Part shown: positions 3,453 through 48,153 of the stretch, one piece after another
Numbering within the stretch: position 1 is the first letter of the stretch
How the letters are laid out: each line of letters opens with the position of its first letter
Assembly (NCBI GenBank): GCA_045531285.1
Contig: JAZSDT010000176.1
Location: 1 to 53,485, forward strand
Reading direction: 5' to 3'
From: Eubacteriales bacterium
GTDB lineage: Bacteria > Bacillota > Clostridia > Oscillospirales > SIG627
DNA length: 53,485 nt
The notes under the pieces: generated by a model
Database searches by the model: none
Told to the model about the DNA's origin: nothing
What the model saw: the letters and a program-made list of their open reading frames with translations, nothing else
Position numbers and translations under genes: made by a program

Positions 3453-3499
3453 ATATAAACAAAATGAGACAACGTAACGTTGTCTCATTTTGTTTATAT
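3453..3499. terminator. Bidirectional terminator (perfect 22-bp inverted repeat)
   Basis: ATATAAACAAAATGAGACAACG-TAA-CGTTGTCTCATTTTGTTTATAT between convergent genes. Confidence 0.85.
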
Positions 3500-3587
3500 A
3501 CTATGAAATTGCATTTTATGAAATCTCGCCGTTTTGCAATAATTTGGTTGTATAGATAGGCGAGTATTGCTAACGGATGATATCCGC
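3495..3587 (-). repeat. Structured intergenic repeat, copy A
   Basis: Minus strand reads GCGGATATCATCCGT-TAGCAATA-CTCGCC-TATC-[19 nt]-AAAAC-GGCGAG...AATGCAATTTCATAGTATA. It starts at the first base after the TAG of ORF 3588..4583. Confidence 0.85.
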
Positions 3588-4583
3588 CTAGTTGTAGAAT
3601 TTTTGTTTTGCCTCTTTTATTAGGTCAAAGCTTTCCTTAAAATAATGCTCGTTCTTTTTTAAGGTGCTGAACCAAGGCGCTGTAACGTATCCGTATATCT
3701 GTTCGTCGGGTGCGTTGTCTCTGAAATATTCTATTACGTCAGAGGTATTATGTGGGCATCGGTTGAACACGGATACACTTGGTGCGTAAAGATACCCTTC
3801 CTTCATCAAGGGTATGGCAACCTCCATAAATTTTACGAGGAATGGATCTTCTTCCACAAATTTAATACCCATTGATGCGTATTCACCCTCGTTGTAATAG
3901 GTTTCGTATTCGGGACGTGCAGTTATCGGAGTCCAGTGCTCACGGCGTATGGCATTGTAGTGATATGGGGAAATGAGCATTTCATCGGGTGCAAAGTGCC
4001 TTTTAAAGTCCTCCGGAAAATCAAAAAGAGGACTCGACCATATCCAAGGCATTGCACCTGTTGACTTTACACAGTCAACCAAAAATCTTAAATCGTGCCA
4101 GTACAAATCCCCCTGTCGGCACACAACGTAATCGCGTTTTTTAATAAATTTCAAGGATTCCTCGTCCATGCCGATATGGATATACTCAGGCTGTTCAAAC
4201 ATCTCATAAGCTTCGTTTATCAGGTCACGGCACACTCTGTAGTATATAGGAGTCGAAGTCATTCGGTAATATTCACCAAGCCACATAGAATGGGCTGTAG
4301 AGAAATTAAGCTTCGGTATAAGTGTTATTCCAAGCTCCTTACAGCGATTGATCTCCTTTTTTACTCTTGCCTTCGACCACGCATCAGGAACGGCAATCTC
4401 GGGATGAGAAGCGAATTCAATAGCATTATTTATGTCAAGAATTATGGTATTTAACCCTGAATCGACGGCACCGTCGAGTATCATATCCCATACTTCTTCA
4501 TCCCAATGCAAACAGTTTCCTTTGTCGTAATTGCTCGCAAAGCACATATTCAAATGCACAAGCATTGACCACATCTTTTTCAT
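3588..4583 (-). CDS. GH20-like TIM-barrel glycoside hydrolase (catalytic domain only)
   Basis: YIHIGMDEE resembles the GH20 H-x-G-x-DE catalytic motif; LIPKLNFSTAH also fits. No signal peptide seen. Confidence 0.65.
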   Translation of the reverse strand: MKKMWSMLVHLNMCFASNYDKGNCLHWDEEVWDMILDGAVDSGLNTIILDINNAIEFASHPEIAVPDAWSKARVKKEINRCKELGITLIPKLNFSTAHSMWLGEYYRMTSTPIYYRVCRDLINEAYEMFEQPEYIHIGMDEESLKFIKKRDYVVCRQGDLYWHDLRFLVDCVKSTGAMPWIWSSPLFDFPEDFKRHFAPDEMLISPYHYNAIRREHWTPITARPEYETYYNEGEYASMGIKFVEEDPFLVKFMEVAIPLMKEGYLYAPSVSVFNRCPHNTSDVIEYFRDNAPDEQIYGYVTAPWFSTLKKNEHYFKESFDLIKEAKQKFYN

Positions 4584-4593
4584 GACAGTCTCC

Positions 4594-5517
4594 TTATTTC
4601 ATCTCGTCTACTGTAATAAATCTGTACCCGTACTCCTTGAGTATTTTGCCAAGACAATAATACTTTTCGGCATAGTCAGGTTGATAGTTGTAATAATCAG
4701 GGTAAAAATACTGCTCGTGGGTAGCCGTACCAATAAATTCGTTGCCGTTGAGCTTAGCAAGCGTTTCGGCAATGGTTTCAACAGTATTAAGGTTGAGACA
4801 GGGCCCTCCTCCGAACATCTTGAAGGCAACTCCACTTTCGTCGGGGATGGACACGTTTTTACCGATAATAGACTCTCGCTGTGATTCCGTGATATGATTA
4901 TAAGCACAAATGGAGGACGTAATTCTAAGGTCGCGTGTCCTTCTTGTAAACAGCTTAGTCTCGGGCTGACGATTGTTCAGCAGTCTTGCCGCGTGTCCGT
5001 AAGGGAGAACACTTTCGTCGCCTGTATACTCGGAAGTTTCACCTGCACTTGGCGTCACAAATTTAACACCGCAATCAGCAAGTGCCTGACAGCCCGCCTT
5101 ACTGATAGGAAGCCAGTGAGGACAGATAGCAGCAGAAACAGAGCCTTCGCCTGCAAAACGCTTTATTTCATTGACTACAGCTTCATAATTTGCCTTAACG
5201 TCCTCGTAAGTGGCATTAACGTACGGATAATCGGGAAATTCTTGCTTTGCGTGGAAGGCAAGTCTCAGCCAGTCCTTGTTAGCCTGAAATTCCAACTTAT
5301 AGGCATCCGTCATATCCGCAAGGGTAAACTCATCGTTGCCGTAGAAAAAATCCGTTCGGTAAAACAAATTGAGCTGTACTGTCATACCGTAGTCGTCATG
5401 TCCTTTTTTTAGCATCTTCATAAATGAGTTGTCAAAAAGAGACTTTGGACGCTGGCGGGTCAGGTCTCGCATCACCCAAACAGTATCGTCTATAAAAAAG
5501 AATGCCTGTTTTTCCAT
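4594..5517 (-). CDS. Uncharacterised protein, possibly polysaccharide-deacetylase (NodB-like) fold
   Basis: N-terminal FFIDD, LAFHA and ATHEQ metal-ligand-like motifs. Has an RBS and sits in an operon. Confidence 0.5.
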   Translation of the reverse strand: MEKQAFFFIDDTVWVMRDLTRQRPKSLFDNSFMKMLKKGHDDYGMTVQLNLFYRTDFFYGNDEFTLADMTDAYKLEFQANKDWLRLAFHAKQEFPDYPYVNATYEDVKANYEAVVNEIKRFAGEGSVSAAICPHWLPISKAGCQALADCGVKFVTPSAGETSEYTGDESVLPYGHAARLLNNRQPETKLFTRRTRDLRITSSICAYNHITESQRESIIGKNVSIPDESGVAFKMFGGGPCLNLNTVETIAETLAKLNGNEFIGTATHEQYFYPDYYNYQPDYAEKYYCLGKILKEYGYRFITVDEMK

Positions 5518-14089: not shown

Positions 14090-15415
14090 ATGAAAGATCT
14101 AACATCCGGAAACATATACAAAAATTTTATACTGTTTGCCATACCAATGGTACTGTCGGGAATGCTGTCCCAGGCATATTCTACTATCGATACAGTTATA
14201 GCAGGCAAGTTCATAGGAGATTCGGCTCTTGCCGCAATAGGCGCCACCTCGCCCCTTATTACCTTTATTTCGTCAATGTTCTGGGGCTTTGGCGTTGGTT
14301 TTTCCGTATACGTCGCAAGGCTTTTCGGGGCAGGCGAATACAAGAGAATAAAAAGTGTAATATATTCGTGCATTATTGTAGTGTTCTGTGTAATTGTCAG
14401 TGTATCGGCACTGCTGATTATTTTCAGAAAGCCTATTTTTTCTCTGTTTAATATTGAGTATCAGTTGGAAACCGTTAAATATTTCGTTTGCTACATGGCG
14501 GGCTTCATATTCATTATCCTGACGTCGTATGGTGTATTTCTTACAAACGCTTTGGGCATTGGCTCTTTTCCGTTTGTTATGTCTGTTCTTTCTGCTGCGC
14601 TCAACGTATCGGGAAATCTGCTTGCCGTAATAGTTCTGGATTGGGGTGTGCTCGGTTTGGCGCTGTCTTCGGTAATTGCCGCAATTGTAGTATGTATATG
14701 CTACGTATTCAAATTTAAAAAGTGCTTTACCGAAATGGGCGTGCTGAAGGAAAAGGTTTCATTTGATTCCAACGGTCTTATTTGTTCCACAAGATATGCT
14801 CTTCCAAATATGTTCCAGCAAATGACAATGTACGCCGCAGGTATGATAATATCACCTATGATAAACGGAATGGGCGCCACGGCAACTGCGGCATATACCG
14901 TAGCTCATAAGGCATATGACATAAATGCATCAGTATATCAGAATTCTTCCAAAACCTTATCAAACTACACGTCTCAGGCATGCGGCGCAGGAAAATACCA
15001 CCTGTTGAAAAAAGGTATCAAAGTAGGTGCCGTTCAAGCCCTGGCTTTTGCTCTTCCTTTTGTTCTCACGTGTGCAATTTTCCCTCGGTTTATATCAAGC
15101 TTATTCTTTGACAGCAATGCCGATCCTTTGTCCGTGGAATACGCTGTGACGTTTATGTCAAAATTCCTTCCGTTTATTTTGATAAACGTCTTTGCCAATT
15201 TGTTTCACTCATATTTCAGAGGACTGGGAGAAAAAGCTCCTCTTATGGTGTCCACTCTGTGCGGTTCTGTTACCAGAATTTTCGTGTCACTTGCTCTTAT
15301 TCCTTCTATGGGAATGATAGGAATGTATATCGGATGGGTTTGTGCGTGGGTATCGGATGCTTTGGTTTGTCTGCTGTTCTACGTTTTCAAGCAAAAAGCG
15401 GCTAGCAGCCGCTAG
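14090..15415 (+). CDS. MATE family efflux transporter
   Basis: MKDLTSG...FAIPMVLSGMLSQAYSTIDTVIAGKFIG...ALAAIG and ~12 hydrophobic segments. The stop codon lies inside repeat copy B. Confidence 0.9.
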   Translation: MKDLTSGNIYKNFILFAIPMVLSGMLSQAYSTIDTVIAGKFIGDSALAAIGATSPLITFISSMFWGFGVGFSVYVARLFGAGEYKRIKSVIYSCIIVVFCVIVSVSALLIIFRKPIFSLFNIEYQLETVKYFVCYMAGFIFIILTSYGVFLTNALGIGSFPFVMSVLSAALNVSGNLLAVIVLDWGVLGLALSSVIAAIVVCICYVFKFKKCFTEMGVLKEKVSFDSNGLICSTRYALPNMFQQMTMYAAGMIISPMINGMGATATAAYTVAHKAYDINASVYQNSSKTLSNYTSQACGAGKYHLLKKGIKVGAVQALAFALPFVLTCAIFPRFISSLFFDSNADPLSVEYAVTFMSKFLPFILINVFANLFHSYFRGLGEKAPLMVSTLCGSVTRIFVSLALIPSMGMIGMYIGWVCAWVSDALVCLLFYVFKQKAASSR

Positions 15416-15497
15416 CAATTCTCGCCTATCCCGAGCTTTGAATATGTTCAAAAAAGTGAAACGGCGAGGTTGATTTAATGCAATTTCCTAGCATATA
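15398..15497 (+). repeat. Structured intergenic repeat, copy B
   Basis: GCGGCTAGCAGCCGC-TAGCAATT-CTCGCC-TATC-[28 nt]-AAAC-GGCGAG-GTTGATTTAATGCAATTTCCTAGCATAT. Confidence 0.92.
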
Positions 15498-15535
15498 AAA
15501 AAATTATGGCAAGGAACTCCTTGCCATAATTTTTT
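15497..15535. terminator. Bidirectional terminator
   Basis: AAAAAATTATGGCAAGGA-AC-TCCTTGCCATAATTTTTT. Confidence 0.88.
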
Positions 15536-22900: not shown

Positions 22901-23419
22901 CTTTGTACTGCCAAAGGAAACGAACTTATTTTTCCAAATGAAGCCGAGTTTAAATATGATGCTGACGGTGCACAGACTGTTATGGCATCAGAAAACGGAA
23001 CTCCCGTACTTCTTAGAAACAAGGGTACTCTGTTAATTAATGCCCCTGTTTCAAAATTAGGTTATGAGTGCTTTGAGGGGCGTGAAGGAAAAACCAAAAA
23101 CAACGTAAGTGAGCTTTTAAGACGGACCTTGAAGGAAGAGATGATAAAGCTTTCTTCTCCTCTTATACTGGGCGAAAACGTTGGAATCACCCTTTTTGAA
23201 AGCGAGAAAGGCAATACACAGCTTCTTGCAATCGACTATTCAGCCTATGACAATCGAAATATAACCGAGCGAGAAGCGGTTGTCAGAATTAATTTTCCAA
23301 TCAAAGAAGCTTTATCGGACCGAAGTTTTGTATCAGTACGTGACAAAAACGGAAATATAACAGAAATCAGATTTAAAATTCTTGCTCACGAAGCGGTAAT
23401 GTTTCGCTTAATCAAATAA
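19988..23419 (+). CDS. Large uncharacterised cytoplasmic protein (1143 aa), possibly a glycoside hydrolase
   Basis: Long ORF with an AGGAGG RBS and no signal peptide. The C-terminal DVLVIPTL...RRLYECGVSLIA resembles GATase-like trimerisation domains of GH42-type enzymes. Confidence 0.6.
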   Translation: MYLLKENFKLYDDNFIPHTLFSEKHSAIQNLHASADERGFVLKSIGNRWILKTPLLKTFSLDLTFSYTYLSQFNPCTYVFFGYDVRNRCGDGIRFVYNLNGAFEVTLVKVDRMQITQIGKSIEFRDFHIKENENINLSVNVDKNILKGNVHGRDFSFDIVPVQGNLAFERKNFVGEWIIKEISLSSQDELDVKTILPEKKVKIPLIDGGDIPYELTYKAEKLGSQCYLLAQLSGGTATRALNRQDRPGQYMAEQDRIASPFVAIRNGTSKKRFKLYHGTRIICDPNVCWDCLKDFFKNPDLPICAIFPIEESDINKDTAISFGYEEMRCIGYLAQSGGPSEFIFDKNGSILYEGEELSESVFELYSPANKYATTLIPEDTYRRKDVLRHLAVNHYFHIDEPISLTMSLRSTLPLENFKIEAEIRDVYDSECLSKLTPETTVEDWKFGYRQLLVKVQNSPLRLGVYRIVFTVYYGDSVYKIYNKVFEVFDKDAHVSPARASGLPFTFSMPNEQKWLMSNTFDLWNPKPSCDEIHFISCVTNTPIEAKKQKIWELMPIFGREWYAWLNNRVCLDWSLENNAETVEHSDYLYTYLENGFNPRIATYLIHAYQRQAFRDILHDFLEKNPNVAKKLIYKPQSVSEHQFTYEELGNLLETCHKEWFDFINGRLLEMIRKQNKDLKKINPKFKRAFYGPFFQYVTGTVSYHSARAFGYDPDDSLAKDIFTGFAVFEDYPSPCAYPTYRGAFAAMTFLLHCPDLVIYPEQYSGSDGGCIDGGVKFAYAPMGKYDTPLYFNSTHAFEYVFNTPHRTKDGYRYWSSYGFHRRDHEPEMADRLTRDWKTVIDNKPCRPLRTMAMITEYFDEEDFFSAENLTLHGYTVFSNVSEEGHGYVFDCVRESGLNSPFAIKSETLSSLNENECDVLVIPTLKYASKETVSEIRRLYECGVSLIAVSDVCGLEDIFGVRENNRKERITELCTAKGNELIFPNEAEFKYDADGAQTVMASENGTPVLLRNKGTLLINAPVSKLGYECFEGREGKTKNNVSELLRRTLKEEMIKLSSPLILGENVGITLFESEKGNTQLLAIDYSAYDNRNITEREAVVRINFPIKEALSDRSFVSVRDKNGNITEIRFKILAHEAVMFRLIK

Positions 23420-23420
23420 A

Positions 23421-23505
23421 CAGATGAGCCATCGCTGACAATTCCCGCCTGTCTTGATCTATGCATAGTAAAACGGCGAGGCAGTTTCCGAGAAATTTTC
23501 CTATA
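23421..23505 (+). repeat. Structured intergenic repeat, copy C (degenerate)
   Basis: GATG-AGC-CATC-GCTGACAATT-CCCGCC-TGTC-[16 nt]-AAAAC-GGCGAG-G...AATTTTCCTATA, starting 1 nt after the stop codon. Confidence 0.75.
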
Positions 23506-23540
23506 AAACAAAAAAGACCCATCGGGGTCTTTTTTTGTTT
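23506..23540. terminator. Bidirectional terminator between the large ORF and tRNA-Leu
   Basis: AAAAAAGACCC-ATCG-GGGTCTTTTTTT. Confidence 0.85.
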
Positions 23541-24187: not shown

Positions 24188-24221
24188 CAAAAGTGCTTCG
24201 CAAATGCGAAGCACTTTTTTG
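24188..24221. terminator. Bidirectional terminator
   Basis: CAAAAGTGCTTCGCA-AA-TGCGAAGCACTTTTTTG. Confidence 0.88.
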
Positions 24222-24277
24222 TATTAAATCAACCTCGACGTTTTAATAGCCGAGCATTCCCGGCGGAGATTCTCCGC
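24221..24277 (-). repeat. Structured intergenic repeat, copy D (variable segment absent)
   Basis: Minus strand GCGGAGAATCTCCGC-CGGGAATG-CTCGGC-TATT-AAAAC-GTCGAG-GTTGATTTAATAC, starting 4 nt after the stop of capA paralog 2. Confidence 0.85.
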
Positions 24278-24281
24278 TTTA

Positions 24282-27520: not shown

Positions 27521-28848
27521 CGAAGCAACAAAGATTAACACAGATATACGTGTATGTGATGTTTTCTCTGTTTCTGTTTTTTACCGGATTCAAGGGATAC
27601 ACTGCCATTTTCAGTGCCAAGTGTGTGGCTTTTACGACATTGAGTCTTATCTACGTACTGTTATCAATCATATTCAAAATAAAAATTAAAGAGTCGGGTT
27701 TTTGGGAAAAAGCCGCGGCAGTATACCTTGTAATAACGGCAATTTCTGCTTTATCGTCAAAATACTTTCCGAAAACTCTTGTGGGAGTATCACGGTATGA
27801 GGGTCTGCTGACAATCGGTATATACGTTCTTGTTTTTATTTGTGTTTCTCAAAACTGGAAAAAAGACAGCTTATTTGTCCCGTTTTTGTCGATTGCTATG
27901 ATACTGGAATCCCTGGTTGTAATACTTCAGCTTATGGGATACAACGCACTGTGGCTGTTTCCAAAAGGAGAAAACTACTACGTTGCCCTTGAAAAATACA
28001 ATGGTGCTTTTATTTCCACCATAGGAAATGCGGATATTGCATCAGCCTTCTTCTCGCTTACGTGCCCAATACTGTCGGTTTTGGTAATTGGCTATAAAAA
28101 ATACAGATATCTGACCCTGCCGGCTTCCGTAATGACGCTTTTTTGTACGCTGTTTATGTCGGTATCTGCCGGAATTGCGGCACTAATTGCAACCGCCTTC
28201 GTTTTGCCCACCGTCATATATAAAGACAAACGCAAGACTGTAATAACAATCCTTGCTTTGATTGCGGTAATAGCTGTATTCACAGTATATTTTCTTCCTT
28301 TGACCAACGGTGCTGTTTTTGAGCTTCAAGCACTTATGAGGGGCAATTTTGACAGTGATTTCGGTTCAGGCAGAATTCACATATGGAAGGAAGTAATAAA
28401 AAACACAAAGCCTTTACTTGGCTCGGGACCCGACACAATGCTGTTTGAAGGGATCGAGCCGTTTACAAAAACGGTTGGTGACAAAACTATTACAAGATAC
28501 ATAGACATTGCCCACAATGATTATCTTAACATTCTGTTTCACCAGGGAATATTTGCTTTAATTTCTTATGTCGCGATACTATCCGTGCTAATAAAATGGT
28601 TTAAAAACGGAAAGAGCAACATACTTGTAACTGCCCTGGGTGCAGGAATCTTTGCCTACTGTGTACAGACGTTCTTCAGCTTTTCGGCTTGCTCCGCCGC
28701 CGCATTTTTCTGGATCTTGCTGGGTGTTTTTAACAGTGAAAGTACTGAAATAACTAAAAAAGCGGCTAGCAGCCGCTGGCAATGCTCGCCTATTGCAACC
28801 AGTATATATTCCCAATCAAAGCCAAACGGCGAGGTTGATTTAATGTAA
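27517..28848 (+). CDS. O-antigen ligase/polymerase (WaaL/Wzy_C) family membrane protein
   Basis: STIGN, GSGRIHIW, PLLGSGPDT and AHNDYLNILFHQG. The last ~28 residues are read from repeat copy E. Confidence 0.82.
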   Translation: MTKQQRLTQIYVYVMFSLFLFFTGFKGYTAIFSAKCVAFTTLSLIYVLLSIIFKIKIKESGFWEKAAAVYLVITAISALSSKYFPKTLVGVSRYEGLLTIGIYVLVFICVSQNWKKDSLFVPFLSIAMILESLVVILQLMGYNALWLFPKGENYYVALEKYNGAFISTIGNADIASAFFSLTCPILSVLVIGYKKYRYLTLPASVMTLFCTLFMSVSAGIAALIATAFVLPTVIYKDKRKTVITILALIAVIAVFTVYFLPLTNGAVFELQALMRGNFDSDFGSGRIHIWKEVIKNTKPLLGSGPDTMLFEGIEPFTKTVGDKTITRYIDIAHNDYLNILFHQGIFALISYVAILSVLIKWFKNGKSNILVTALGAGIFAYCVQTFFSFSACSAAAFFWILLGVFNSESTEITKKAASSRWQCSPIATSIYSQSKPNGEVDLM

Positions 28849-28861
28849 TTTCCTAGTATAT
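28762..28861 (+). repeat. Structured intergenic repeat, copy E
   Basis: GCGGCTAGCAGCCGC-TGGCAATG-CTCGCC-TATT-[29 nt]-AAAC-GGCGAG-GTTGATTTAATGTAATTTCCTAGTATAT. Confidence 0.92.
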
Positions 28862-28903
28862 AAAAAATGATGTAAAAACCAAAGGTTTTTACATCATTTT
28901 TTA
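28861..28903. terminator. Bidirectional terminator (perfect 20-bp inverted repeat)
   Basis: TAAAAAATGATGTAAAAACC-AAA-GGTTTTTACATCATTTTTTA. Confidence 0.8.
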
Positions 28904-28969
28904 GTTTTGCTATGCTTGGTTTCTTACATAGGCTGTGATAGGCGAGATTTGCCTGCGGAGGCTCTCCGC
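28904..28969 (-). repeat. Structured intergenic repeat, copy F (right arm lost)
   Basis: Minus strand GCGGAGAGCCTCCGC-AGGCAAAT-CTCGCC-TATC-[28 nt]-AAAAC, then the terminator. Starts at the first base after the polA TAA. Confidence 0.88.
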
Positions 28970-31528
28970 TTATTGCTTGGCTTCCAACCAATTTTTACCT
29001 ATTCCAACGTCTACAGAAAGCTTAACCAGCATATCCGCAACGCTCTCCATTTCTTCCTTGAGTAATTTCGCTGCATACTCTGCCTCGCTTTGAGGGGCTT
29101 CTATAATAAGCTCATCATGAACTTGAAGTATCAGCCTGCTTTTCAAGCCCTCTGCTTTCAATCTGCGGTCTGTTTTTACCATAGCCAACTTTATAAGGTC
29201 TGCCGCAGTGCCCTGAATGGGTGAATTTTTTGCCACCCTTTCGCCAAAAGCACGAAGCTGCTTCTTTGTGCCTGTAAGCTCGGGAATATAGCGTTTTCTG
29301 CCCCAAAGGGTAGTAACGTATCCCTTTTCAACAGCATCGGCAACAGTCTTGTCAAGATATTCCTTTACGTACGGGTAGGTGTTGAAGTAACCCGTAATAT
29401 AATCCTTAGCCTCCTTCATAGAAATATGAAGGTCTCCGGCAAGTGAAAATTCACCCATACCGTACACTATACCGAAATTAACTGCCTTGGCTCTGCTTCT
29501 TAATTCGTGAGTTACCTTGTCAAGAGGAACACCGAAAACCTGTGAAGCAGTAGCCGAATGTATGTCGGCACCGGAATTAAAGGCATCAATAAGATTCTTG
29601 TCCTGTGAAAGATGCGCAAGCACTCTCAGCTCAATCTGTGAGTAATCCGCATCTATTAGAACCATCGATTCTCCCGCAGTGAAAAACTCTCTCAAACGGC
29701 TTCCCTGCTCGGTTCTCACGGGAATATTCTGTAAATTAGGCTCTGCAGAGGACAATCTGCCGGTCTGTGTCTGCTTCTGGTTGAAGCTCGTCCTTATTCT
29801 GCCATCCGAATGAGTGACCTTGATAAGTCCTTCAATATACGTGCCGTAAAGCTTTGAAAGTCGGCGATATTCCAAAATATAATCTATAACAGGCGAATGG
29901 AATCTGAGCTTTTCGAGAGTCTCGGCATCGGTTGCATAGCCTGTTTTGTTCTTCTTAATAATTGGAAGAGACAGCTTTTCGTAGAGAATAACTCCTAATT
30001 GCTTTGGGGAATTAAGGTTGAATTTCTCGCCGCATATCGCCCATATGCTTTCCTCTGCTCTGTCCATCTGCTCTTTGAGCTGTACTCCGTAGGCTTCTAT
30101 TCCTTGTTTATCAACAGCAAATCCTCTCATTTCCATGCCTGCAAGAACTCTGGAAAGAGGCAATTCGGTCTCGTAATACAAATACGTCAGCTTTTCTTCT
30201 TCTATTCTTTTTGACAGCTCTTCAAAAAGCGGTGCAATAAGAGGAGCGCGTACCTCGGGAGAGGATTCTGCCGAAGGCGGAACGCTTTTTGACAGGTAGG
30301 TCATCACTATCCTCGAAAAATCTCCTCTGCTGTCGGGATTGTCCACGTAGGAGGCAAGCTGTACATCAAACGCTACAAGGCTTTCGTCAAGCTCTTCAAA
30401 AAGCTCTCCCGTTTTCAACCAAAAATCCTTAGAGTCAAACAGACACAAGCGTCTGGACGACAAAGCCTTTATGAGTGCTGAGCTGAGCGCACAGGAATAT
30501 ATCACACCGTCCTTGGCATAATAAAACGTATTCTCTATAAGGTCAAGGGGTACATTGTCAGAGGGAAGAAGCGCGAGAAATTCACTCTCGGTCACATCTC
30601 TTATATCTGCACTTTCCTCTTCTATCATATCAAAGCTGAGTTGCATTCCGTCAGGTTCTTTTTTTACAGGCTCGTCAAGACCGAAACGCGACATCATTTT
30701 TGTAAATTCAAGTTTTATAAAAAGCTCACGCAGTGCATTTGTGTCCTGCGTTGATATTTCGAGTGTATCGCAGTCGGGAAGGTCAGGTACGGTAAGACAT
30801 ATCTCTGCCAGCTTTCTTGACATCGTTGCCGATTCTCTTCCGTTCAAAAGCTTTGTTTTTACGCCCTCGGACAGCTTAATCGAGCCGCTGTCAAGACTTT
30901 CGTATATTCCCTCCAAGCTACCTGCTTCTAAAATCAGCTTTATTGCTGTTTTTTCACCTATTCCGGGGACACCCGGAATATTGTCCGACGAATCGCCTGC
31001 AAGGGCTTTTACGTCTATTAGCTTTTTGGGCGGGAGAGAATACTTTTCCTCAATTTCTTTTGGCGTGTAAACCGTGTCCTCGCCTGTTGAGGCAAGTATT
31101 ACGGTTGTTTTATCGGAGACCAACTGAAAGGAGTCACGGTCTCCCGTAACAATATAGCTTTCTCCGTCAAATTCCTTTGACAACGTACCAAGTATGTCGT
31201 CTGCCTCATAGCCTTCAAGGGAAACTGTTTTTATACCAAGTAAGGCTGTAACTTCCTTTATGATAGGTATCTGAGACAGCAATTCATCGGGAGTAGCGTG
31301 TCTGCCTGCCTTGTATTCATTATACATTTTATGGCGGAAGGTAGGCGCATTAAGGTCAAAGGCAACGGCGGCATAATCGGGCTTTATAGCATCAAGATGC
31401 TTTTTGAGTATATTAAGGTATCCGTACACAGCGTTGGTGTGTATGCCTGTTCTTGTAACCAAGGGTCTGACACCGTAAAACGCTCTGTTCATTATGCTGT
31501 TTCCGTCAACTATCAATAATTTTTTCAT
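28970..31528 (-). CDS. polA: DNA polymerase I
   Basis: LIVDGNS 5'-3' exonuclease domain, TGRLSSAEPNLQNIP, DADYSQIELRVLAH and LQVHDEL. Confidence 0.97.
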   Translation of the reverse strand: MKKLLIVDGNSIMNRAFYGVRPLVTRTGIHTNAVYGYLNILKKHLDAIKPDYAAVAFDLNAPTFRHKMYNEYKAGRHATPDELLSQIPIIKEVTALLGIKTVSLEGYEADDILGTLSKEFDGESYIVTGDRDSFQLVSDKTTVILASTGEDTVYTPKEIEEKYSLPPKKLIDVKALAGDSSDNIPGVPGIGEKTAIKLILEAGSLEGIYESLDSGSIKLSEGVKTKLLNGRESATMSRKLAEICLTVPDLPDCDTLEISTQDTNALRELFIKLEFTKMMSRFGLDEPVKKEPDGMQLSFDMIEEESADIRDVTESEFLALLPSDNVPLDLIENTFYYAKDGVIYSCALSSALIKALSSRRLCLFDSKDFWLKTGELFEELDESLVAFDVQLASYVDNPDSRGDFSRIVMTYLSKSVPPSAESSPEVRAPLIAPLFEELSKRIEEEKLTYLYYETELPLSRVLAGMEMRGFAVDKQGIEAYGVQLKEQMDRAEESIWAICGEKFNLNSPKQLGVILYEKLSLPIIKKNKTGYATDAETLEKLRFHSPVIDYILEYRRLSKLYGTYIEGLIKVTHSDGRIRTSFNQKQTQTGRLSSAEPNLQNIPVRTEQGSRLREFFTAGESMVLIDADYSQIELRVLAHLSQDKNLIDAFNSGADIHSATASQVFGVPLDKVTHELRSRAKAVNFGIVYGMGEFSLAGDLHISMKEAKDYITGYFNTYPYVKEYLDKTVADAVEKGYVTTLWGRKRYIPELTGTKKQLRAFGERVAKNSPIQGTAADLIKLAMVKTDRRLKAEGLKSRLILQVHDELIIEAPQSEAEYAAKLLKEEMESVADMLVKLSVDVGIGKNWLEAKQ

Positions 31529-35066: not shown

Positions 35067-35089
35067 TACATCACTTCCTTGTACGCCGT

Positions 35090-35831: not shown

Positions 35832-35841
35832 GGAGAACACC

Positions 35842-36750
35842 ATGGACGGAAGAATATCTAATTTCAGACAAATAGCATCCATTCAGCGATACACAATAAC
35901 GGAAGGACGCGAAAAAGGTCTTGACGTAATAGACTGCAACAACGGAAAGCTCCGATTTTTACTCAACGTGACCAAGGCGCTTGACGTTATGCAGCTGTGG
36001 CACGAGGGACAGAATATGTCCTTTGTTTCAAAGAATGCATTTACCGCCAGAGAAATCGATTTTCTCAACCGTTTTGAAGGCGGAATGATATACACCTGCG
36101 GTCTTGACAATATGGGCAGAAGAGACGGCTATATACTTCACGGTACACATCACAACCAAAATGCCGAAATAATACACGCGGAATGCAACGAGGACGGAAT
36201 CACAGTTGAAGCTATTGTCAGGGAAACAGCACTCTTCGGGCAGAATCTTGTGTTCAGAAGAAAAGTTTTCACAGCAATTGAGTCGGGCAGTGTATCAATT
36301 GAGGATACAATAGAAAACGCAGGGCACTCCGAAGCAAGCTACGGCATTCTCTATCATATAAACCTTGGTTATCCCATGCTTGACAAGGATACAAAAATAG
36401 TTGCGGATTGCGAAGCCATAAATGCAAGAACACAGTTTGCAACAGATAATATAGACAGTGCCTTCAATATGACGGATTCTGTTGTGGGGCAGGATGAGAT
36501 GTGCTACTATCTCACCCTTAATAAGCCCAAAATTTCCCTTGTAAACGAAAAGATTGGAAAGTCGTTCACCGTTGCTTACTCAAAGGAAACGCTTCCCTAC
36601 TTTCTCGAATGGAAGAGTATGGCAAGCGGAGACTATGCACTGGGTCTTGAGCCTACCACCAGCATATTGGATGATGAGTTCAAGTACAAAACGCTTGCTC
36701 CCAACGAAAAGAAAACGTTTAATATAACCCTCTCGGTAAACAAAAGATAA
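35842..36750 (+). CDS. Aldose 1-epimerase-like protein (DUF4432 family)
   Basis: FEGGMIYTCGL, LHG, LYHINLGYP and YALGLEP. Confidence 0.82.
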   Translation: MDGRISNFRQIASIQRYTITEGREKGLDVIDCNNGKLRFLLNVTKALDVMQLWHEGQNMSFVSKNAFTAREIDFLNRFEGGMIYTCGLDNMGRRDGYILHGTHHNQNAEIIHAECNEDGITVEAIVRETALFGQNLVFRRKVFTAIESGSVSIEDTIENAGHSEASYGILYHINLGYPMLDKDTKIVADCEAINARTQFATDNIDSAFNMTDSVVGQDEMCYYLTLNKPKISLVNEKIGKSFTVAYSKETLPYFLEWKSMASGDYALGLEPTTSILDDEFKYKTLAPNEKKTFNITLSVNKR

Positions 36751-36753
36751 AAA

Positions 36754-36982
36754 GCGGAGAACCTCCGCTGGCAACGCTCGCCTATCGCAACCTTCGGGTA
36801 TACCTACAATGCAAAACGGCGAGGTTGGTTTAATGCAATTTCCTAGTATATAAAAAAGCGGCTAGCAGCCGCTGGCAATGCTCGCCTATCGTAACTTTTG
36901 AGTATAGCCCTACAACGTAAAACGGCGAGGTTGGTTTAATGCAATTTCCTAGTATATAAAAAAGAAAAGAGCCTCCGCAGGT
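36754..36982 (+). repeat. Tandem repeat copies G (36754) and H (36858) plus a truncated head (36964)
   Basis: Two full units with periods of 104 and 106 bp and variable segments of 26 and 28 nt, then AGAGCCTCCGCAGG. Starts 3 nt after the epimerase stop. Confidence 0.93.
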
Positions 36983-37002
36983 GTATTACCTGCAGAGGCT
37001 CT
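36968..37002. terminator. Central hairpin formed by two facing repeat heads, probable bidirectional terminator
   Basis: AGAGCCTCCGCAGGT-GTATT-ACCTGCAGAGGCTCT with 14 of 15 positions paired, flanked by A- and T-rich tracts. Confidence 0.7.
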
Positions 37003-37220
37003 CTGCTTTTTCTTTATAGAAGTTTTCTCAACAATTATACCCTCGCCATTTTGATTTGTTTGAATGAACACATTGCTTTGGATAGGCGAGAATTGCTTGC
37101 GGAGGCTCTCCGCTTTTTCTTTATAGAAGTTTTCTCAACAATTATACCCTCGCCGTTTTGATTTGTTTGAATGAACACATTGCTTTGGATAGGCGAGAAT
37201 TGCCTGCGGAGGCTCTCCGC
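36988..37220 (-). repeat. Tandem repeat copies J (37220) and I (37113) plus a truncated head (37006)
   Basis: Exact 107-bp period. I and J differ at only 2 positions seen. Starts at the first base after the stop of the 1588-aa ORF. Confidence 0.93.
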
Positions 37221-40200
37221 TTATACGTTTTTACGGTCTATCTTGTAGTGAGTGAAGGTTTCCCATACGTCTCCCTTTAAAACTGTGCCGTTTTTAACAA
37301 AGGTGAAATACATCTTGTTATAAGAACCGCCTCCGTTATCGGCTATTGACATATAGGGCTTGATGAAGGTGTCATAATCGTTTACCGTCATTGTGAAATA
37401 CAGACCGCTTTCCTTACCGTATACAGTTACCGACGTAGTTCCGTCTACGTAGTAGGTACCGTGTTCGCTGAGATTGAGGTCAGCAGGCTCGGTAAGAGTC
37501 GTGTAAAATGCATCCGTGTACGTCTTTGTGGGAGGCATCATGGCAAGATACGAGTGGCTCAGCTGATATTCTCCCAGCCATTCTACCTTCTGTTCAAGTC
37601 TGATTCCCGCATGAGTCACGGTATATTCCTTATGGTGCTTCAAAACAGCCGTTGTATTGTTTGATGGGTCATAGCCTATGCTGTTTTCGATTATCTCGAG
37701 CTTTTTAAACTCGGTTGCCTTTGTAAGCGTTGTCACGTCTGTCTCAACGCCGTCAACGTAGAATTTGACGTCGGTCATTAATTCGTCACCGTGTGCCCAA
37801 CCTCCTATGAAATCGCCTCTGCCTGAAAGCATCAACGCCATATCCCATTCTGCATTTGGAGTTGTAATGGCAACAGGATTCTTTAATTCGTCATCACACA
37901 TATACGCTACCGAAAGTCTCCAGACGTCAGAATTGCGTGCTGTAGCATCACTCACCGTATGCACGTAAGTATGGTCTATGTATCCGTTCTCGGTAGGAAT
38001 ATAAAGATGTATTCCGTTCTGAGCACCTTCGATTGAAAATCCTGTATCGTATTTTACGTAAAGAGGCTTGGGGTTAACGTAAGCATCAGCCGATGCATAA
38101 TATCCAAACATAGCATTAGCCAGGCTTGCAAGACGAGTATTGTGGGAGTTCATCGCAGTTTTCAAATAGTTTGCCGCACTGTACTCTATCTCGTATGCCG
38201 TTCCTTCCTCGTCTTTTATTGTAAGAGTATACTGTGTTCCTATGTGCTGAGCGGGAATATCGGTTATATCGTAATAAATATATCCTTCCTTTTCACCGTA
38301 GGAGATATCGCACGTATATTTTGAATTGAATGCACTAATGTCCGAAACCGCAAAGTAATGTCTGATTGTAACGTTGTCCTTCAGAATAAGTGATGTGCCG
38401 TAGAATTCAACTCCGTCAAGCTTGGCATCTGTTCTTGAAGCAGACTCTATCAAATCCGTACTTGCCGCCGTTGTATATTTTTCAAGGTCACCGCCGTTAA
38501 AGTAGTTATCGGCATAGGCAACGTAGTTCTCCAGCTGAGAAATAAGGTCCAGAGCGTTTATAAATTTCTCGTCGCCTTCCGAAGCAAGAGCCTTTGACCT
38601 TTCCACGTAATCGGCAAAGGTAAGAGTTCCACCAAGATTGCTGTAGGAAACACGGCTTGAATCATTCTTGAGATAACCGCCAAGGTCACATTCGATTCGA
38701 ACGTTGTCAACGTCCTTTGCGGGAATGGAAACCGTCATTGAATAAAGACCTGTTTCGGAATCGAGTGTCACGGGAGTGGACCATGCAGTACCTGTAGAAA
38801 AATCAGAGGCACCGCCCTGTCTGTAAAGATTGTAATCGGGGTCGTCGGAGGTGCATTTGTAGTCCTCGTTTACCCTTGTCATATAGAAGTTCACATCCGA
38901 AACGGAATTGGTATCGATGTCCATATATACCTTGATTCCGATGGTTCCGTCGAGCACCAGGCTTGTGCCAACTACTGTAATTTCGGGTGACGTTATAGGT
39001 TCGGAAACGGGGCTTTCAAGATATTCGCTGTTCCCCAACGCTTTTACGGTATAATCCGCAGCTGCCTTAACCGCAGTGAAGGATGCACCCTTAAACGATG
39101 TCCATTCTTCTCCGTCAAAGGAATATGCGTAGGTAAGCTTTTCGTTGTAATTATCTACTGTAATTACGGCATTTTTTGTGCTCATAGAAAGCACAGGCTT
39201 CTCAGCAGGCATAATAGCATCAACAGAATATCCGTTTTTAATCAGATATACGTTGTAATCTCCGTTGTCACTGTCCTCGCAGTCAAAATATGAGCCGTCC
39301 GTAAGAACGTAGGGATGTATAACTATTCCGACTATATATCCGGTTGTGTTATCAAAATCCTCAAGGTTGACCGTAACGTTTGTTCCTGTCTTGGTGTAGC
39401 TTACGTCCTTATAAGCGATTCTGTCAACAAGCTCGTCGTTTTCATCGATTACCTTAAATACGAATTTAGTTTGTACCGTACCGTTGAGAGTAAAACAGCC
39501 CTGACGCAAGGAAACTCTGAATTTAAAGCTCTCAAAATCCGACATTGGAATAATCTCGTCGGGAGTGTATGCGTATGAGTAATATATGCTGTCACTGACC
39601 TTAGCCGCATTGGCACGGGCTGTTGCAAGTGCGTTTTCGTTTGATGCGTCTCTTATTGCCGTAGCCCAACTGCCGGAAATAGGCGTGCTTGAGCTTCCCA
39701 GGATAAGAGCATCAAAACCATAGGAAAGTGCAAGGCTGTTGGAGAGGGTAAGTCCTGTCCACTTAGCTTGGTTAAACTTTATTTTTCCGCCTGCGTCGGC
39801 GTAGCTTCCCGCGTTTACAACGTCAACAACGTCAAGAGTGGCTGTGCCCGCCTTGTTCAACGTGGGAGTGGTATGAAGAATGCTTGTAAGACTGTTTCCG
39901 GGAATGTATACGTAAGTATGATCCGAGCCGTTGTGACTGTAACCGTCACCGCTCAGCTTTACAGCAACAAGACCTGTCATCTCGGGATCAAATTCGCTTG
40001 CTCCGGCGGGAACGTACTTCCAAGCAGAAGCTTCAATGCCGTTTATATCAAACTGTGCATATTCATAGGCAAAAGCCTTTGAAAGTCCCTTGATAGCTCC
40101 GCTTTCGTATGAAAGTCCTTCGGGCTTCACGTCGGTGGAAGGAAGCTCGTCGGGAGTTGAAATTGTATACGTTGTGGTTGAAAGAGTGAGAGGGTATCTG

Positions 40201-41987: not shown

Positions 41988-42090
41988 TGTAGTTTTTCCT
42001 CCTAAAAATATCTTCACATTGTAATTATATCAGGTTTTATTAAAGATTACATTGATATTATTGCTTAAAACATTGAAAATATTGACAACA

Positions 42091-42350
42091 GCGGAGAGCC
42101 TCCGCTGGCAATGCTCGCCTATCGTTGCCTTTGAGTAAACCATACAATGTAAAACGGCGAGGTTGATTTAATACAATTTCTCTGTAAATAAAAAAGCGGA
42201 GTGCCTCCGACGGCAATGCTCGCCTATCGTTGCCTTTGAGTAAACCATACAATGCAAAACGGCGAGGTTGATTTAATACAATTTCTCGGTAAATAAAAAA
42301 GCGGAGAACCTCCGCTGGCTATTTTCACCCATCCAAAGTCTTACACGCTC
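42091..42350 (+). repeat. Tandem repeat copies K (42091), L (42196) and degenerate M (42301)
   Basis: Exact 105-bp period. K and L are near-identical with 27-nt variable segments. M keeps GCGGAGAACCTCCGCTGGC and then decays. Confidence 0.93.
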
Positions 42351-42388: not shown

Positions 42389-42391
42389 CGT

Positions 42392-45769: not shown

Positions 45770-46636
45770 ATGATCTACTATTTTATGCTGATATGTGCCG
45801 CGGCGTTATTTTCGGTACAGTTTTTCTTTCAGAAAAAATTTGAATCCTCTTTTGGAACAGACGTAAAAAGTGCTCTTGTCTTCTCGGCGGGAACCGGCTT
45901 TGGAATGGCTTTTATCTCGCTTATAATAGCACTTTTTACAAACGGAATACATATAACACTGTTTTCCGCTGCAGTCGGTCTGGTCCACGGTCTTGCCAGC
46001 TTTCTTTTTATGTACTGCTCGCTTAAAGCGCTGCAATATGCCAACCTTTCGGTCTTCTCGGTCTTTTCTATGTTGGGCGGTATGCTTCTCCCCTTTTTTT
46101 ATGGAATACTTCTTGCTCCCGAAAAAGAAGCTCTTACTGCAGGAAAGATCGTCTGCTGTGCGCTGATAAGCCTTGCGGTAATCTGTACTGTATCGGGCGG
46201 TAAAAGCAGTAACAAAAAAGCCTATTTTTACTACGTTGCCGTATTCATAACCAACGGAATAACAAGCGTTTGTGCCTCGGTGCATCAGAATTACCCAAGC
46301 CTCAACACAGACAGCTACAGTTATATGGTAATTTCAAGTGCTTGGCTTATGATTTTAGGTCTTTTGTTTTTACCTTTTTGTAAGGGTCAAAAAAGAAAGG
46401 TTACAAGAAGTGTCGCTTTGCAGATGGCAGGCTTTTCCCTTTGTAGCGGAACAGGAAATATTATTTTAATGCTTGCTCTTCTTGTGCTTGACGCATCGGT
46501 TCAGTTTCCTTATTCAACCGGTGCGGCTGTAGTGTTCTCGGCGCTTATCACTCTTATTATGGGTGAAAAGATGAAAAAGAATGAAATTGTTTCTGTAATA
46601 ATAGCTTTCATTGCTACTGTAGCAATGATGTTTTAA
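45770..46636 (+). CDS. DMT/EamA-like transporter
   Basis: About 10 hydrophobic segments in two repeats. Co-transcribed with the GH1 gene. Confidence 0.72.
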   Translation: MIYYFMLICAAALFSVQFFFQKKFESSFGTDVKSALVFSAGTGFGMAFISLIIALFTNGIHITLFSAAVGLVHGLASFLFMYCSLKALQYANLSVFSVFSMLGGMLLPFFYGILLAPEKEALTAGKIVCCALISLAVICTVSGGKSSNKKAYFYYVAVFITNGITSVCASVHQNYPSLNTDSYSYMVISSAWLMILGLLFLPFCKGQKRKVTRSVALQMAGFSLCSGTGNIILMLALLVLDASVQFPYSTGAAVVFSALITLIMGEKMKKNEIVSVIIAFIATVAMMF

Positions 46637-46656
46637 TATTTGAAAGGAATTTTACT

Positions 46657-48009
46657 ATGGTACTTTATGATTTTCCAAAAGACTTTTTGTTCGGAACAGG
46701 CTCTTCCTGTTATCAGGTCGAAGGCTCTGTAAATGCAGACGGAAAAACCGACAACATATGGGATATGGCATCCACCTCTTATTCCAAAAAGTTCAAGGCA
46801 ACCACCGAGCCTACCTCAGGCTTTTACAAGCATTTCAGAGAAGACATTAAAGAAATGAAGGAGCAAGGACTGAAAACCTTCCGTTTTTCAATCTCCTGGA
46901 CAAGAATCCTTCCAACTTTAGACGGAGGAGTAAACCCTAAAGGGATTGAGTTTTACAATAACGTAATAGACCTTCTTCTTGAATATGGCATTGAACCGTT
47001 CGTTGACCTGTATCACTGGGATATGCCAATGTACATTTATGAGCTTGACGGCTTTCTTAACAAGGATATTGTCAAGCATTTTACACGCTTTGCCAAGGTT
47101 TGCTTTGAAAGCTTCGGTGACAGAGTAAAGCTCTGGAGTACAATAAACGAACCAAGTGTCTTCTGCTTTGCTCCATATCAGGAAAACAGAGCCTGGCCCC
47201 CGTTTGCACCAAACGGCACAGACCTTAAGGCAGGTATACTTGCAGGGCACAACGCACTGATGTGCCATTTTAAGACGGTTCAGCTTTATAAAAGCATGAA
47301 CCTTGGAGGAAAAATAGGTGCGGTTATTGCCGTTGTTCCCATTTATCCCGCCGACCCGTCGGGCAAGGATAAGATTGCCGCGACCTACCAGATGGAAAGG
47401 TGCTCGGGCTGGTGGCTTGACCCTATGATTTTAGGTCATTATCCGGAAAACCTTCTTCGTGATTGCCCTGTATATAGAGATTCTATGCCCCACGGCTATG
47501 CCGAGGATATTGAGCGTGAATTTGTTCCTATGGATTTTGTTGGTGTCAATTACTACTATCCCGGCCGAGTTGAGTACGACGAGAGTTTGCCTGCACTCAG
47601 TAAACACGTAGAAAATTACTACGTTCAGGAGGGACAATACTTTGAAACGTACCCTGCGGGACTGTATGACGTTCTTATGCACGTTAAGGAAAAATACAAT
47701 AATCCCATTGTATATATTACGGAAAACGGTCTTGGAATGAAAGACACGGGCAACAAGGAAGAAATGGTGGATGACAAGGTAAGGATCACCTATCTTCGCG
47801 AGCATCTGCGTATGCTTTCAAGAAGTGTTAAAGCAGGAAGTAACGTGCGCGGCTATTATTACTGGTCGAATTTTGATTCCTTTGAAAATTCCGCGGGCTA
47901 CACCTTCAGGTTCGGATTTAATTACGTTGATTTTGAAACAGGAGAAAGGACCCGTAAAAAGAGCTGGTATTACTACAAAAAGGTAATTGCCGACTGTGCG
48001 GTTGACTAA
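46657..48009 (+). CDS. GH1 beta-glucosidase
   Basis: FPKDFLFG...YQVEG, FRFSISWTRI, LYHWD, and catalytic TINEP and ITENG. Confidence 0.93.
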   Translation: MVLYDFPKDFLFGTGSSCYQVEGSVNADGKTDNIWDMASTSYSKKFKATTEPTSGFYKHFREDIKEMKEQGLKTFRFSISWTRILPTLDGGVNPKGIEFYNNVIDLLLEYGIEPFVDLYHWDMPMYIYELDGFLNKDIVKHFTRFAKVCFESFGDRVKLWSTINEPSVFCFAPYQENRAWPPFAPNGTDLKAGILAGHNALMCHFKTVQLYKSMNLGGKIGAVIAVVPIYPADPSGKDKIAATYQMERCSGWWLDPMILGHYPENLLRDCPVYRDSMPHGYAEDIEREFVPMDFVGVNYYYPGRVEYDESLPALSKHVENYYVQEGQYFETYPAGLYDVLMHVKEKYNNPIVYITENGLGMKDTGNKEEMVDDKVRITYLREHLRMLSRSVKAGSNVRGYYYWSNFDSFENSAGYTFRFGFNYVDFETGERTRKKSWYYYKKVIADCAVD

Positions 48010-48010
48010 T

Positions 48011-48153
48011 AGGGAAAGCCTCTGTCGGCGAGGTTGCTTTAATGGAATTTCCTATAAAGTAAAAAGCGGCTTGCAGCCGCTGGCAATGCTCGCCTATCCT
48101 AAGCTTTGCATATGTTCAAAAAAGCGTAATAATAAAGAAATTTCCTACAAAGC
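48011..48153 (+). repeat. Repeat copies N (internally deleted, 48011) and O (right arm lost, 48066)
   Basis: N is a decayed head joined directly to GGCGAGGTTGCTTTAATGGAATTTCCTA. O reads GCGGCTTGCAGCCGC-TGGCAATG-CTCGCC-TATC-[28 nt]...AATTTCCTA. Confidence 0.85.

Follow-up and report, generated by a model that had tools for sequence, protein, structure and literature searches.

The described repeat closest in behaviour to the element reported here appears to be the pneumococcal SPRITE. In the available part of PMC3049150, SPRITE is presented as terminator-like, with A/T ends, as the pneumococcal repeat most enriched at convergent 3' ends, and as having no known partner or target duplication (also mentioned in the accessible part of PMC10969869, a review of MITEs, the miniature transposable elements with inverted repeats). 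The element reported here is a directional unit of ~105 bp that recurs through a 53,485-nucleotide stretch of DNA from an uncultured Eubacteriales bacterium (contig JAZSDT010000176.1 of assembly GCA_045531285.1; the whole stretch is called the window below). The window is contig C138 of this assembly, here G000, which holds 2,368,005 bases in 179 contigs and is 86% complete. G000, its sister genome G008 and the other members of the genus compared with it are incomplete metagenome-assembled genomes (MAGs), which applies to every gene absence given below. Our results make it probable that the unit belongs to a genus-restricted family of non-coding, directional interspersed repeats that are non-autonomous and are mobile, or were so very recently. 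We read this as a new interspersed-repeat family that is neither a REPIN/RAYT system nor a classical MITE.

The likeness to SPRITE is one of description, and reaches as far as the available part of its source. Both are small AT-rich interspersed repeats of a Firmicute, both carry a terminator-like hairpin with a T-rich tract and have A/T homopolymer ends, and both are strongly enriched near convergent gene 3' ends. Neither has a recognisable insertion sequence (IS) partner or an established target duplication, and each is confined to a species or genus cluster. As described there, SPRITE combines a duplex of 18 bp with a lengthy T tract and has inverted ends (AAAA/TTTT) and 30 copies, whereas the 105-bp unit has a hairpin of 6-7 bp with a 3-nt loop, two invariant hexamers, A-runs in direct orientation and 364 matches in G000. 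Head-to-tail arrays, formed by the 105-bp unit, are a further difference.

REP/BIME sequences and REPIN-RAYT systems resemble the unit in properties that are mostly common background and in part stand in the available portion of PMC3337134. They are GC-rich extragenic hairpins in hundreds of copies, they lie in gene 3' flanks, between convergent genes and in clusters, and they are regarded as non-autonomous and as acting on mRNA 3' ends, which may hold for the 105-bp unit too. The 105-bp unit differs in being directional, with one hairpin in place of an inverted REP pair and with arrays made of direct repeats; no RAYT gene was found flanked by it, and the RAYT-like gene of G008 stands beside a different hairpin. 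Pneumococcal BOX elements, within the available account of PMC3049150, are likewise modular intergenic repeats of variable length in which a module is repeated in tandem, with slow turnover between genomes and co-transcription with neighbouring genes, the last of which would be predicted for the unit from its position. In the same account BOX is built of distinct modules, A, B and C, and has target duplications as well as terminal inverted repeats. In the 105-bp family, by contrast, whole units are repeated and inverted termini are lacking.

Elements of the IS200/IS605 type enter 3' of a short, fixed target, which is not duplicated. With the ends of these elements and their miniature derivatives the unit would share a hairpin-dependent mechanism, likely in single-stranded form, as well as the lack of inverted termini and a fixed short sequence on the left flank. 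It differs from them in having one hairpin rather than hairpins near both ends, and in an even orientation between co-directional genes (40 sense and 47 antisense) rather than a replication-tied strand bias; the IS200 copies of G000 also have unrelated ends. Classical MITEs are short, non-coding, multi-copy and intergenic, as is the unit. Unlike them, it has no terminal inverted repeats, and no parent IS with its ends was found in G000.

Anatomy and distribution of the repeat family

A preliminary description of the window had listed 15 starts at eight loci as copies of one unit of about 105 bp. All 15 are copies or fragments of such a unit in motif, nhmmer and covariance model (CM) searches, and the copies do occupy eight loci. 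The head motif GCGG-N7-CCGC-NN-GCAA, with at most one mismatch, has 13 occurrences in the window where 100 shuffles predict 0.12, and these sites coincide exactly with 13 of the 15 starts: 3587(-), 15398(+), 24277(-), 28762(+), 28969(-), 36754(+), 36858(+), 37113(-), 37220(-), 42091(+), 42196(+), 42301(+) and 48066(+). The two starts that lack the head motif, 23421(+) and 48011(+), are fragments, the latter reading as a degenerate hairpin joined to a right half with the interior deleted. A body motif, CTCGCCTAT-N20-45-AACGGCGAG, was found eight times in the window against 0.00 expected. An nhmmer profile made from nine window copies gave 14 matches there, nine of them full length, and the CM gave 13 at E≤1.

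The consensus proposed earlier agrees with the one drawn from 162 aligned full copies of the genome. In order, the unit comprises an A-run (TAAAAAA in most young copies), a hairpin, H1, of the form GCGG-NN-AGC-NN-CCGC, then TGGCAAT, CTCGCC-TATC, a loose stretch of ~38 nt, AAAAC-GGCGAG, GTTGATTTAATGCAATTTCCTAGTATA and a second A-run, which the AT-rich tail reaches through TATA. At positions -1 to -5 before the hairpin the frequency of A is 0.76-0.92.

H1 is a true constrained hairpin. Across species, three of its six pairs are altered on both sides, with 53 cells changed in this way against 18.6 in shuffles; none of 500 shuffles reached 53, and the signal collapsed in slid controls. Within the genome, 1821 of 1934 H1 cells are Watson-Crick, and the top pairs are divided as CG 115, AT 114 and TA 76 in one case and as TA 134, GC 106 and CG 68 in the other. 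Pairing that is kept by compensatory change suggests that H1 acts as a folded single strand, of DNA or RNA, and not as a duplex binding site. Three versions of the stem prevail, CT/AG in 82 units, TC/GA in 54 and AG/CT in 48. We considered these versions as separate subfamilies and rejected this, since the bodies of units of one version are 0.733 identical and those of different versions 0.724, and the three consensus bodies nearly coincide. The pattern fits a few master copies that are distinct only by compensated stem changes.

Beyond H1 no consistent pairing was detected within the unit, and the tail has no conserved pairing, which leaves one supported hairpin per unit. CTCGCC and GGCGAG, the inverted hexamers, lie ~26 and 35 nt in from the ends and are invariant in the cross-species alignment; as they never vary, they would be either a stem or two binding sites. 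Mismatches in the hexamer pair are more often A-C/C-A (74) than G-T/T-G (42), a weak asymmetry that would fit wobble tolerance on the opposite strand and that runs in the opposite direction to the background substitutions outside stems (per consensus base, 47.7 for C>T and 32.5 for G>A). Single-sequence folds of three units on both strands were uninformative (z-scores -2.3 to +0.4). Two further ideas about the unit were dropped: a CRISPR-like spacer in the variable stretch, where the columns are moderately conserved and diverge by descent, and an outward promoter in the tail, where none was called by the scan and the -35-like bases are poorly conserved.

The preliminary description had expected hundreds of copies per genome from the density in the window, and the assembly as a whole bears this out. 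At E≤1e-3 the nhmmer profile gave 364 matches in G000, forming 260 same-strand arrays that cover 33,052 bases, or 1.40% of the assembly; 220 of the 364 span model positions 8-98 and the other 144 do not. Grouped without regard to strand, the matches make 256 arrays, of which 164 are single, 77 double, 14 triple and one quadruple. As many as 28 of these 256 lie within 150 nt of a contig end, and the repeat thus helps to fragment MAG assemblies.

The family is restricted to the genus. A BLAST survey with a two-unit query was positive for 12 of the 15 other genus members and for none of 25 genomes from other genera, and the CM was positive for 11 of the 15 and for none of 35 genomes drawn from seven further genera of the family. 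No CM match was obtained in G001, G007, G009 and G013; at least 71 matches were scored in each of G000 and G008, 53 in G011 and 28 in G015. Such a family is a ready strain and species marker for the genus. A scan with an exact pattern, taken over one genome per species, returned 46 stretches, all in records of uncultured Oscillospiraceae, Clostridia or Eubacteriales MAGs, and most of their titles name gut samples of goat, roe deer or water buffalo. The plasmids, phages and viral contigs searched held no match to the unit. The unit had also been said not to correspond to any recognised element. In agreement with this, the sole match in the window at Rfam gathering score is a tRNA, and at E≤10 Rfam placed nothing on the units of the array region and only weak matches on its central terminator. 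A limited literature search found no description of the unit in print.

Recent movement and the two junctions

Identical copies with unrelated flanks, together with empty orthologous sites, show that the unit has moved recently. Among 202 full units, 69 have a non-adjacent match of at least 96% identity and 12 have an identical one. In eight aligned twin pairs the flanks are unrelated and the block of identity runs from TAAAAAA-GCGG to ...TATATAAA, the exceptions being a neighbouring unit that follows and one pair that has no right flank at a contig end. One twin pair shares the variant right end TAAATAA, with TAAAAAA on its left sides, which suggests that the right A-run travels with the element. 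To the left of young first or solo units stands TAAAAAA in 28 of 46 cases and CAAAAAA in six; among older units TAAAAAA is found in 9 of 80. Of 46 young last units, 20 have one of the 15 commonest strings at the right end, and in 16 of these the string is ATATAAAAAA.

A comparison of empty and filled orthologous sites had been proposed as a check, and between G000 and G008, whose flanks are 80-88% identical, it revealed three sites that are empty in G008. At locus 36750 of the window G008 reads from the stop codon into the terminator; at C11:4085 a third genome, G009, keeps a decayed remnant; and C153:4839 is also empty in G009 and G004. The filled allele at C11:4085 in G000 reads TAAAAAA-[unit]-TAAAAAA-AGTCTTGCC and the empty allele in G008 reads ...TGTTA-TAAAAAA-GTCTTGCC, so that TAAAAAA stands twice when the site is filled and once when it is empty. 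At C173:5160 the two genomes differ by a unit gained beside an old tail remnant, and at 48011 G008 has at most a short tail-like remnant. Both genomes are occupied at 15394, at 24217 (one unit in G000 and two in G008), at 28757 (a tail remnant only in G008), at C82:5372 and at C166:6739, the last judged solely from an alignment that spans the unit. The comparison was not possible at 3494, 23421 and 42087, and for one of the six loci with fresh copies none of five sister genomes offered a counterpart.

Four public sequencing runs yielded short, low-depth contigs only, with one informative record, from run X2; stretches that such contigs do not reach say nothing either way. The X2 contig is near-identical to the window over 47638-48055 (five differences) and skips 48056-48148, that is 93 nt with a 4-nt ambiguity at the boundary, which is a unit-sized length difference between populations. 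A search of metagenome contigs with the PolA protein gave a nearest match of 48% identity and no same-species alleles.

One possible explanation of these junctions is a classical MITE: the unit would derive from an IS by internal deletion and be mobilised in trans by a DDE transposase, with the A-runs as its 6-7-bp target-site duplication at a preferred A-rich target. The preliminary description had reported the absence of terminal inverted repeats and of a visible target duplication. The first point holds for the 162-copy consensus; the second does not stand as worded, as an A6 run lies on both sides of young copies. This run, the doubling of TAAAAAA on going from the empty to the filled site, and the size, copy number, non-coding nature and intergenic location of the unit would all suit a MITE. 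However, inspection of the consensus gives GCGG... and ...TATA as ends, which are not inverted, and the assembly holds neither a parent IS with these ends nor any multi-copy IS. The twins that share TAAATAA on the right with TAAAAAA on the left suggest a right run that is carried along and not remade from the target, and compensatory change in H1 is unexpected for a transposase that binds duplex DNA. We regard a MITE as improbable.

Gene ends, terminators and the search for a mobilising enzyme

The units lie mostly in gene 3' flanks, as the head-side neighbours confirm. Counted on a crude longest-ORF call (1985 open reading frames, ORFs, covering 90% of the assembly), the head-side neighbour is a same-strand gene in 172 of 245 arrays, at a median of 9 nt, and the tail-side neighbour is a convergent gene in 162 of 228, at a median of 60 nt. 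For 106 first units near the end of a same-strand ORF of at least 100 codons, the stop codon lies 0-5 nt from GCGG in 42, the ORF enters the unit in 20, and the stop lies at least 7 nt upstream in 44. A perfect hairpin begins within 60 nt past the tail in 67 of 95 arrays (median start 5 nt), and 39 of these 67 are then followed by at least five T in eight positions; the same hairpin search was positive for 9 of 95 arrays when made before the head, and for 148 of 560 random stop codons when made after them. The layout is thus nearly always a stop codon, one or more units, and a terminator hairpin.

Arrays lie between convergent genes in 105 cases, between co-directional genes in 40 cases in sense and 47 in antisense, and between divergent genes in 21, with 47 incomplete contexts that meet a contig end on one side. 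By intergenic region, 91 of 250 convergent, 80 of 1286 co-directional and 18 of 270 divergent ones are occupied, so that convergent regions stand at 91/250 against 98/1556 for all others (odds ratio 8.5, p about 1e-34). The near-equal numbers in sense and antisense indicate that orientation is set by the rule that the tail faces a hairpin and not by gene direction; they also show no strand bias of the kind that IS200/IS605 elements have. With 1.4% of the genome of an uncultured ruminant-gut member of the Clostridia and 36% of its convergent intergenic regions, the family probably shapes 3'-end formation and read-through at hundreds of genes.

New copies land in an A-tract directly 5' of a terminator hairpin, and in this genus the tract usually starts at or just after a TAA stop codon. 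The A-tract 5' of the hairpin would be the target, and the A-run that ends the unit would recreate it for the next insertion, which would explain the head-to-tail arrays and their 105-bp period. The two junctions of an inserted unit look alike, the left one being A-run|H1 and the right one A-run|terminator hairpin, and because of this likeness a single structure-specific enzyme could cut both. It is tempting to speculate that the unit is a terminator-seeking element that carries one of two recognition hairpins itself and takes the host terminator, or the hairpin of the next unit, as its right end, although we give this version only a tentative place. Its left junction, A-run followed by a GC hairpin, would mimic the target, A-run followed by a terminator hairpin; both junctions would be cut by a single-strand enzyme that is structure-specific, or through an RNA route, and the element would regenerate its target and thereby build arrays. 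If this version is true, a third of convergent gene pairs have been colonised by it, each with a terminator added against antisense transcription.

In the scan for terminators, which covered 28600-48300 of the window, H1 with its T-run on the opposite strand was called terminator-like in 8 of 10 heads. By this match to the consensus of intrinsic terminators, each unit would add a terminator that faces transcription from the tail side, and many copies may by now serve the host as back-up terminators where genes converge, which is compatible with mobility. A stronger form of this idea is that the units are host-serving cis-RNA modules kept by selection, with a stop-adjacent, mRNA-protecting hairpin on the sense side and a back-up terminator on the other, and that mobility is incidental. 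The terminator match in 8 of 10 heads, the covariation that maintains H1, the occupancy of convergent regions, the two places in the window where facing arrays surround a central terminator, and copies that are well kept in G000 and decayed at orthologous sites in G008 are all consistent with such a role. The convergent enrichment is, however, also predicted by tolerance of insertion, an argument made for pneumococcal repeats in the available part of PMC3049150. A new class of 3'-UTR RNA, the alternative offered in the preliminary description, would suit the position of the unit between stop codon and terminator. Unbiased orientation between co-directional genes would be unexpected if the RNA function of either strand drove retention, and tells against RNA from one particular strand as the chief force behind the family. 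The 144 of 364 matches that fall short of positions 8-98 include many decaying fragments, and the absence of CM matches from 4 of 15 genomes of the genus indicates that the unit is dispensable. We consider selection as cis-RNA modules unlikely to account for the family.

The opposite strand also bears on a SINE-like route, in which a transcript ending at its own H1 terminator is reverse-transcribed into A-tracts. Read on that strand, the unit runs from just past the T-run of one terminator to its own hairpin and T-run, the target is an A-tract, the wobble asymmetry of the hexamers weakly favours this strand, and G000 has one reverse transcriptase gene. The product of that gene, the sole one found, is of the usual group II intron kind, with HNH and maturase domains, and the gene adjoins an Rfam group II intron match; no internal promoter was called in the units. 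We know of no bacterial SINE-like system of this type, and we hold this route to be very improbable.

No transposase had been seen near the units, and a Pfam search of the 44 large ORFs of the window likewise returned no transposase or recombinase family. The preliminary description had further proposed to look for an HUH/Y1, IS200/IS605, IS110 or reverse transcriptase gene flanked by the unit, and G000 yielded none. Its two Y1 genes score as IS200 (156.7 bits) and have CCCCGGC hairpin ends that are unrelated to the unit, and the contigs of both carry no match to the repeat. IS110 was not detected in G000, where one sub-threshold match fell inside a 1410-aa ORF, and neither was TnpB; IS91 was not detected either, but its control also matched nowhere, so that this blank is uninformative. 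Comparison of G000 with itself revealed duplicates of a large serine recombinase and of an Xer-like integrase, neither of them linked to units. In G008, a RAYT-like Y1 protein (L129, G008:C20:23826-24347, minus strand) has REP_Tyr_transpos as its best NCBIfam match, with 63.9 bits against a cut-off of 80, and its gene is flanked by hairpins of the GTAG-GGGAGGGG type, which are different from the unit; gene and hairpins may be a separate REP-like system. Elsewhere in the genus a RAYT-like protein was found only in G013.

These results concern the proposal of the preliminary description that the unit is REP/REPIN-like. The description as abundant, non-coding, dispersed and apparently non-autonomous stands, and the link to REPIN/RAYT is not supported, given direct stacking, unrelated Y1 ends and the lack of co-occurrence. 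We weighed it as a REP/REPIN-type element moved by a RAYT, or as a derivative of an IS200/IS605 end moved by TnpA. The GC-rich hairpin is conserved in structure and not in sequence, terminal inverted repeats are lacking, Y1 genes exist in the genus, and a constant left flank, TAAAAAA, beside a right end that is the element's own resembles the insertion pattern of IS200/IS605 elements. Against this, the Y1 genes of G000 are those of IS200 with other hairpins on repeat-free contigs, and the RAYT-like gene of G008 falls below its cut-off between GGGAGGGG hairpins. Across genomes neither gene goes with the abundance of the repeat; Y1_Tnp is present in G001 and G013, which have no CM match, and was not found in the repeat-rich G011 and G015. 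Inverted REPIN pairs do not occur, with units stacked directly and mixed strands in 4 of 256 arrays; each unit has a single hairpin instead of subterminal hairpins at both ends; and orientation, with gene direction as a proxy for replication, is unbiased at 40 against 47. A RAYT or TnpA origin therefore seems improbable.

Several observations weigh against our reading of the units as a mobile or recently mobile, non-autonomous family. No cognate enzyme for the unit was found in G000 (86% complete), and the self-comparison of this genome gave no multi-copy IS. Nothing like a master copy that carries a coding insert came to light; the two ORFs within the one split unit are unrelated. At 15394-15500 and C82:5372-5475 the copies of G000 are near-consensus, 96-98% like copies elsewhere, while those of G008 are badly decayed and without hairpin. 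A fresh copy opposite a decayed one at an orthologous site points to refreshment by gene conversion or re-insertion, and some copies taken as young could thus be products of these processes and not of first-time transposition. Units next to each other agree better (0.86) than pairs taken at random (0.74), and in 16 of 47 pairs the closest match is the neighbour, so that some arrays grew by local duplication. The clean empty site at C11:4085 adjoins a promoter-like stretch and no hairpin, which makes the hairpin a frequent feature of the target and not a required one. The crudeness of the gene call behind the placement counts belongs here as well.

The split unit lies at G000:C173:15991-17930 and is interrupted centrally by ~1.8 kb with ORFs of 250 and 260 aa, neither with a Pfam match; the first has a HEINH motif and the second is lipoprotein-like. 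A head-to-tail pair 1.8 kb apart on this contig had been a candidate master copy and was set aside, as it is one unit split by two ORFs without family match.

Taken as directional, without inverted termini, with one covarying hairpin, adjoining terminators and recreating its target, the unit fits no textbook scheme of mobilisation. It is thus a lead either to a form of small-DNA movement that has not been described or to a recruited terminator module.

Copies in the window and neighbouring sequences

The first copy in the window is a full unit at 3488..3597 (-; CM 79.7 bits, nhmmer 63.5 bits), with its hairpin directly 3' of the TAG stop of ORF 3588-4583. A full solo unit at 15388..15504 (+; CM 118.3 bits) follows, whose tail leads into a terminator hairpin and whose orthologous site in G008 holds a decayed copy; the TAG stop of a MatE-family ORF, 14072-15415 (+), lies inside its hairpin loop. 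The degenerate unit at 23410..23517 (+; CM 62.2 bits, nhmmer 30.7 bits) stands 3' of the stop of ORF 19988-23419, and beyond it come a terminator and then an opposite-strand tRNA gene, 23543-23623(-). The unit at 24213..24287 (-; CM 46.9 bits) is internally deleted, lies 3' of the stop of ORF 24282-25370 and faces a terminator with its tail. ORFs 19988-23419 (+), 3588-4583 (-) and 4594-5517 (-), of 1143, 331 and 307 aa, have no Pfam family at the thresholds used.

Next, two units face each other around a bidirectional terminator-like hairpin at 28861..28903, called in the terminator scan. The left one is a full unit at 28752..28869 (+; CM 127.2 bits), and a Wzy_C-family ORF, 27517-28848 (+), extends about 90 nt into it. 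The right one, at 28904..28972 (-), is a partial unit of head and left half (nhmmer model positions 2-69, 41.3 bits), with its hairpin directly 3' of the TAA stop of the PolA ORF 28970-31558. Many native terminators past unit tails, that at 28861-28903 among them, share the stem TGTAAAAAC...GTTTTTACA and may be a repeat family of their own.

The same arrangement recurs with arrays in place of single units. Two tandem full units at 36744..36965 (+; CM 92.3 and 130.5 bits) begin immediately 3' of the TAA stop of the DUF4432 ORF 35821-36750, and a central bidirectional terminator-like hairpin at 36966..37004, for which the scan gave 17 pairs, separates them from an opposed array at 37003..37230 (-; CM 49.9 and 93.3 bits). 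The latter consists of two tandem units of a tail-variant subfamily, seen as a 107-nt direct repeat with 95% identity, and its head adjoins the TAA stop of ORF 37221-42017. At 42081..42340 (+; CM 113.7 and 82.6 bits) lie two full units and a truncated third, the head of which is at 42301 and which consists of the hairpin and a degenerate left arm. This array is antisense to both neighbouring genes, and its truncated end faces the terminator, 42356-42384, of ORF 42392-43054. The last array, at 48010..48161 (+; CM 67.1 bits), joins an internally deleted unit (48010-48055) to a partial one (48056-48161); it lies 3' of the stop of the GH1 ORF 46657-48009, and a terminator follows at 48161-48189.

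Since several ORFs read into the repeat, annotation of such genes calls for caution. One frame of the consensus unit, as we read it, is open along most of its length, and the repeat may add C-terminal residues.

The ORF that lies between two of these arrays, 37221-42017 (-), encodes 1598 aa without a Pfam family. The genes on either side of it in G000 are direct, facing neighbours in G008, where a counterpart with 66-70% identity is found on another contig. Other differences in gene content also start at a unit, with 5 kb extra in G008 past C166:6739 and 3.5 kb extra in G009 at C153:4839.

Outside the window, G000 holds a second family of repeats, ~160 bp long, for which nhmmer gave 26 matches, for instance at C154:150-310, at C85:6000-6400 and near 8700-9000 of C33. 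Two of its copies had no Rfam match at E≤0.1. It often lies directly past the tail of a 105-bp unit, and in all 10 copies that reach the 3' end the distance between this end and the beginning of a same-strand ORF is -2 to 17 nt. The second family seems to supply a ribosome-binding site and leader.

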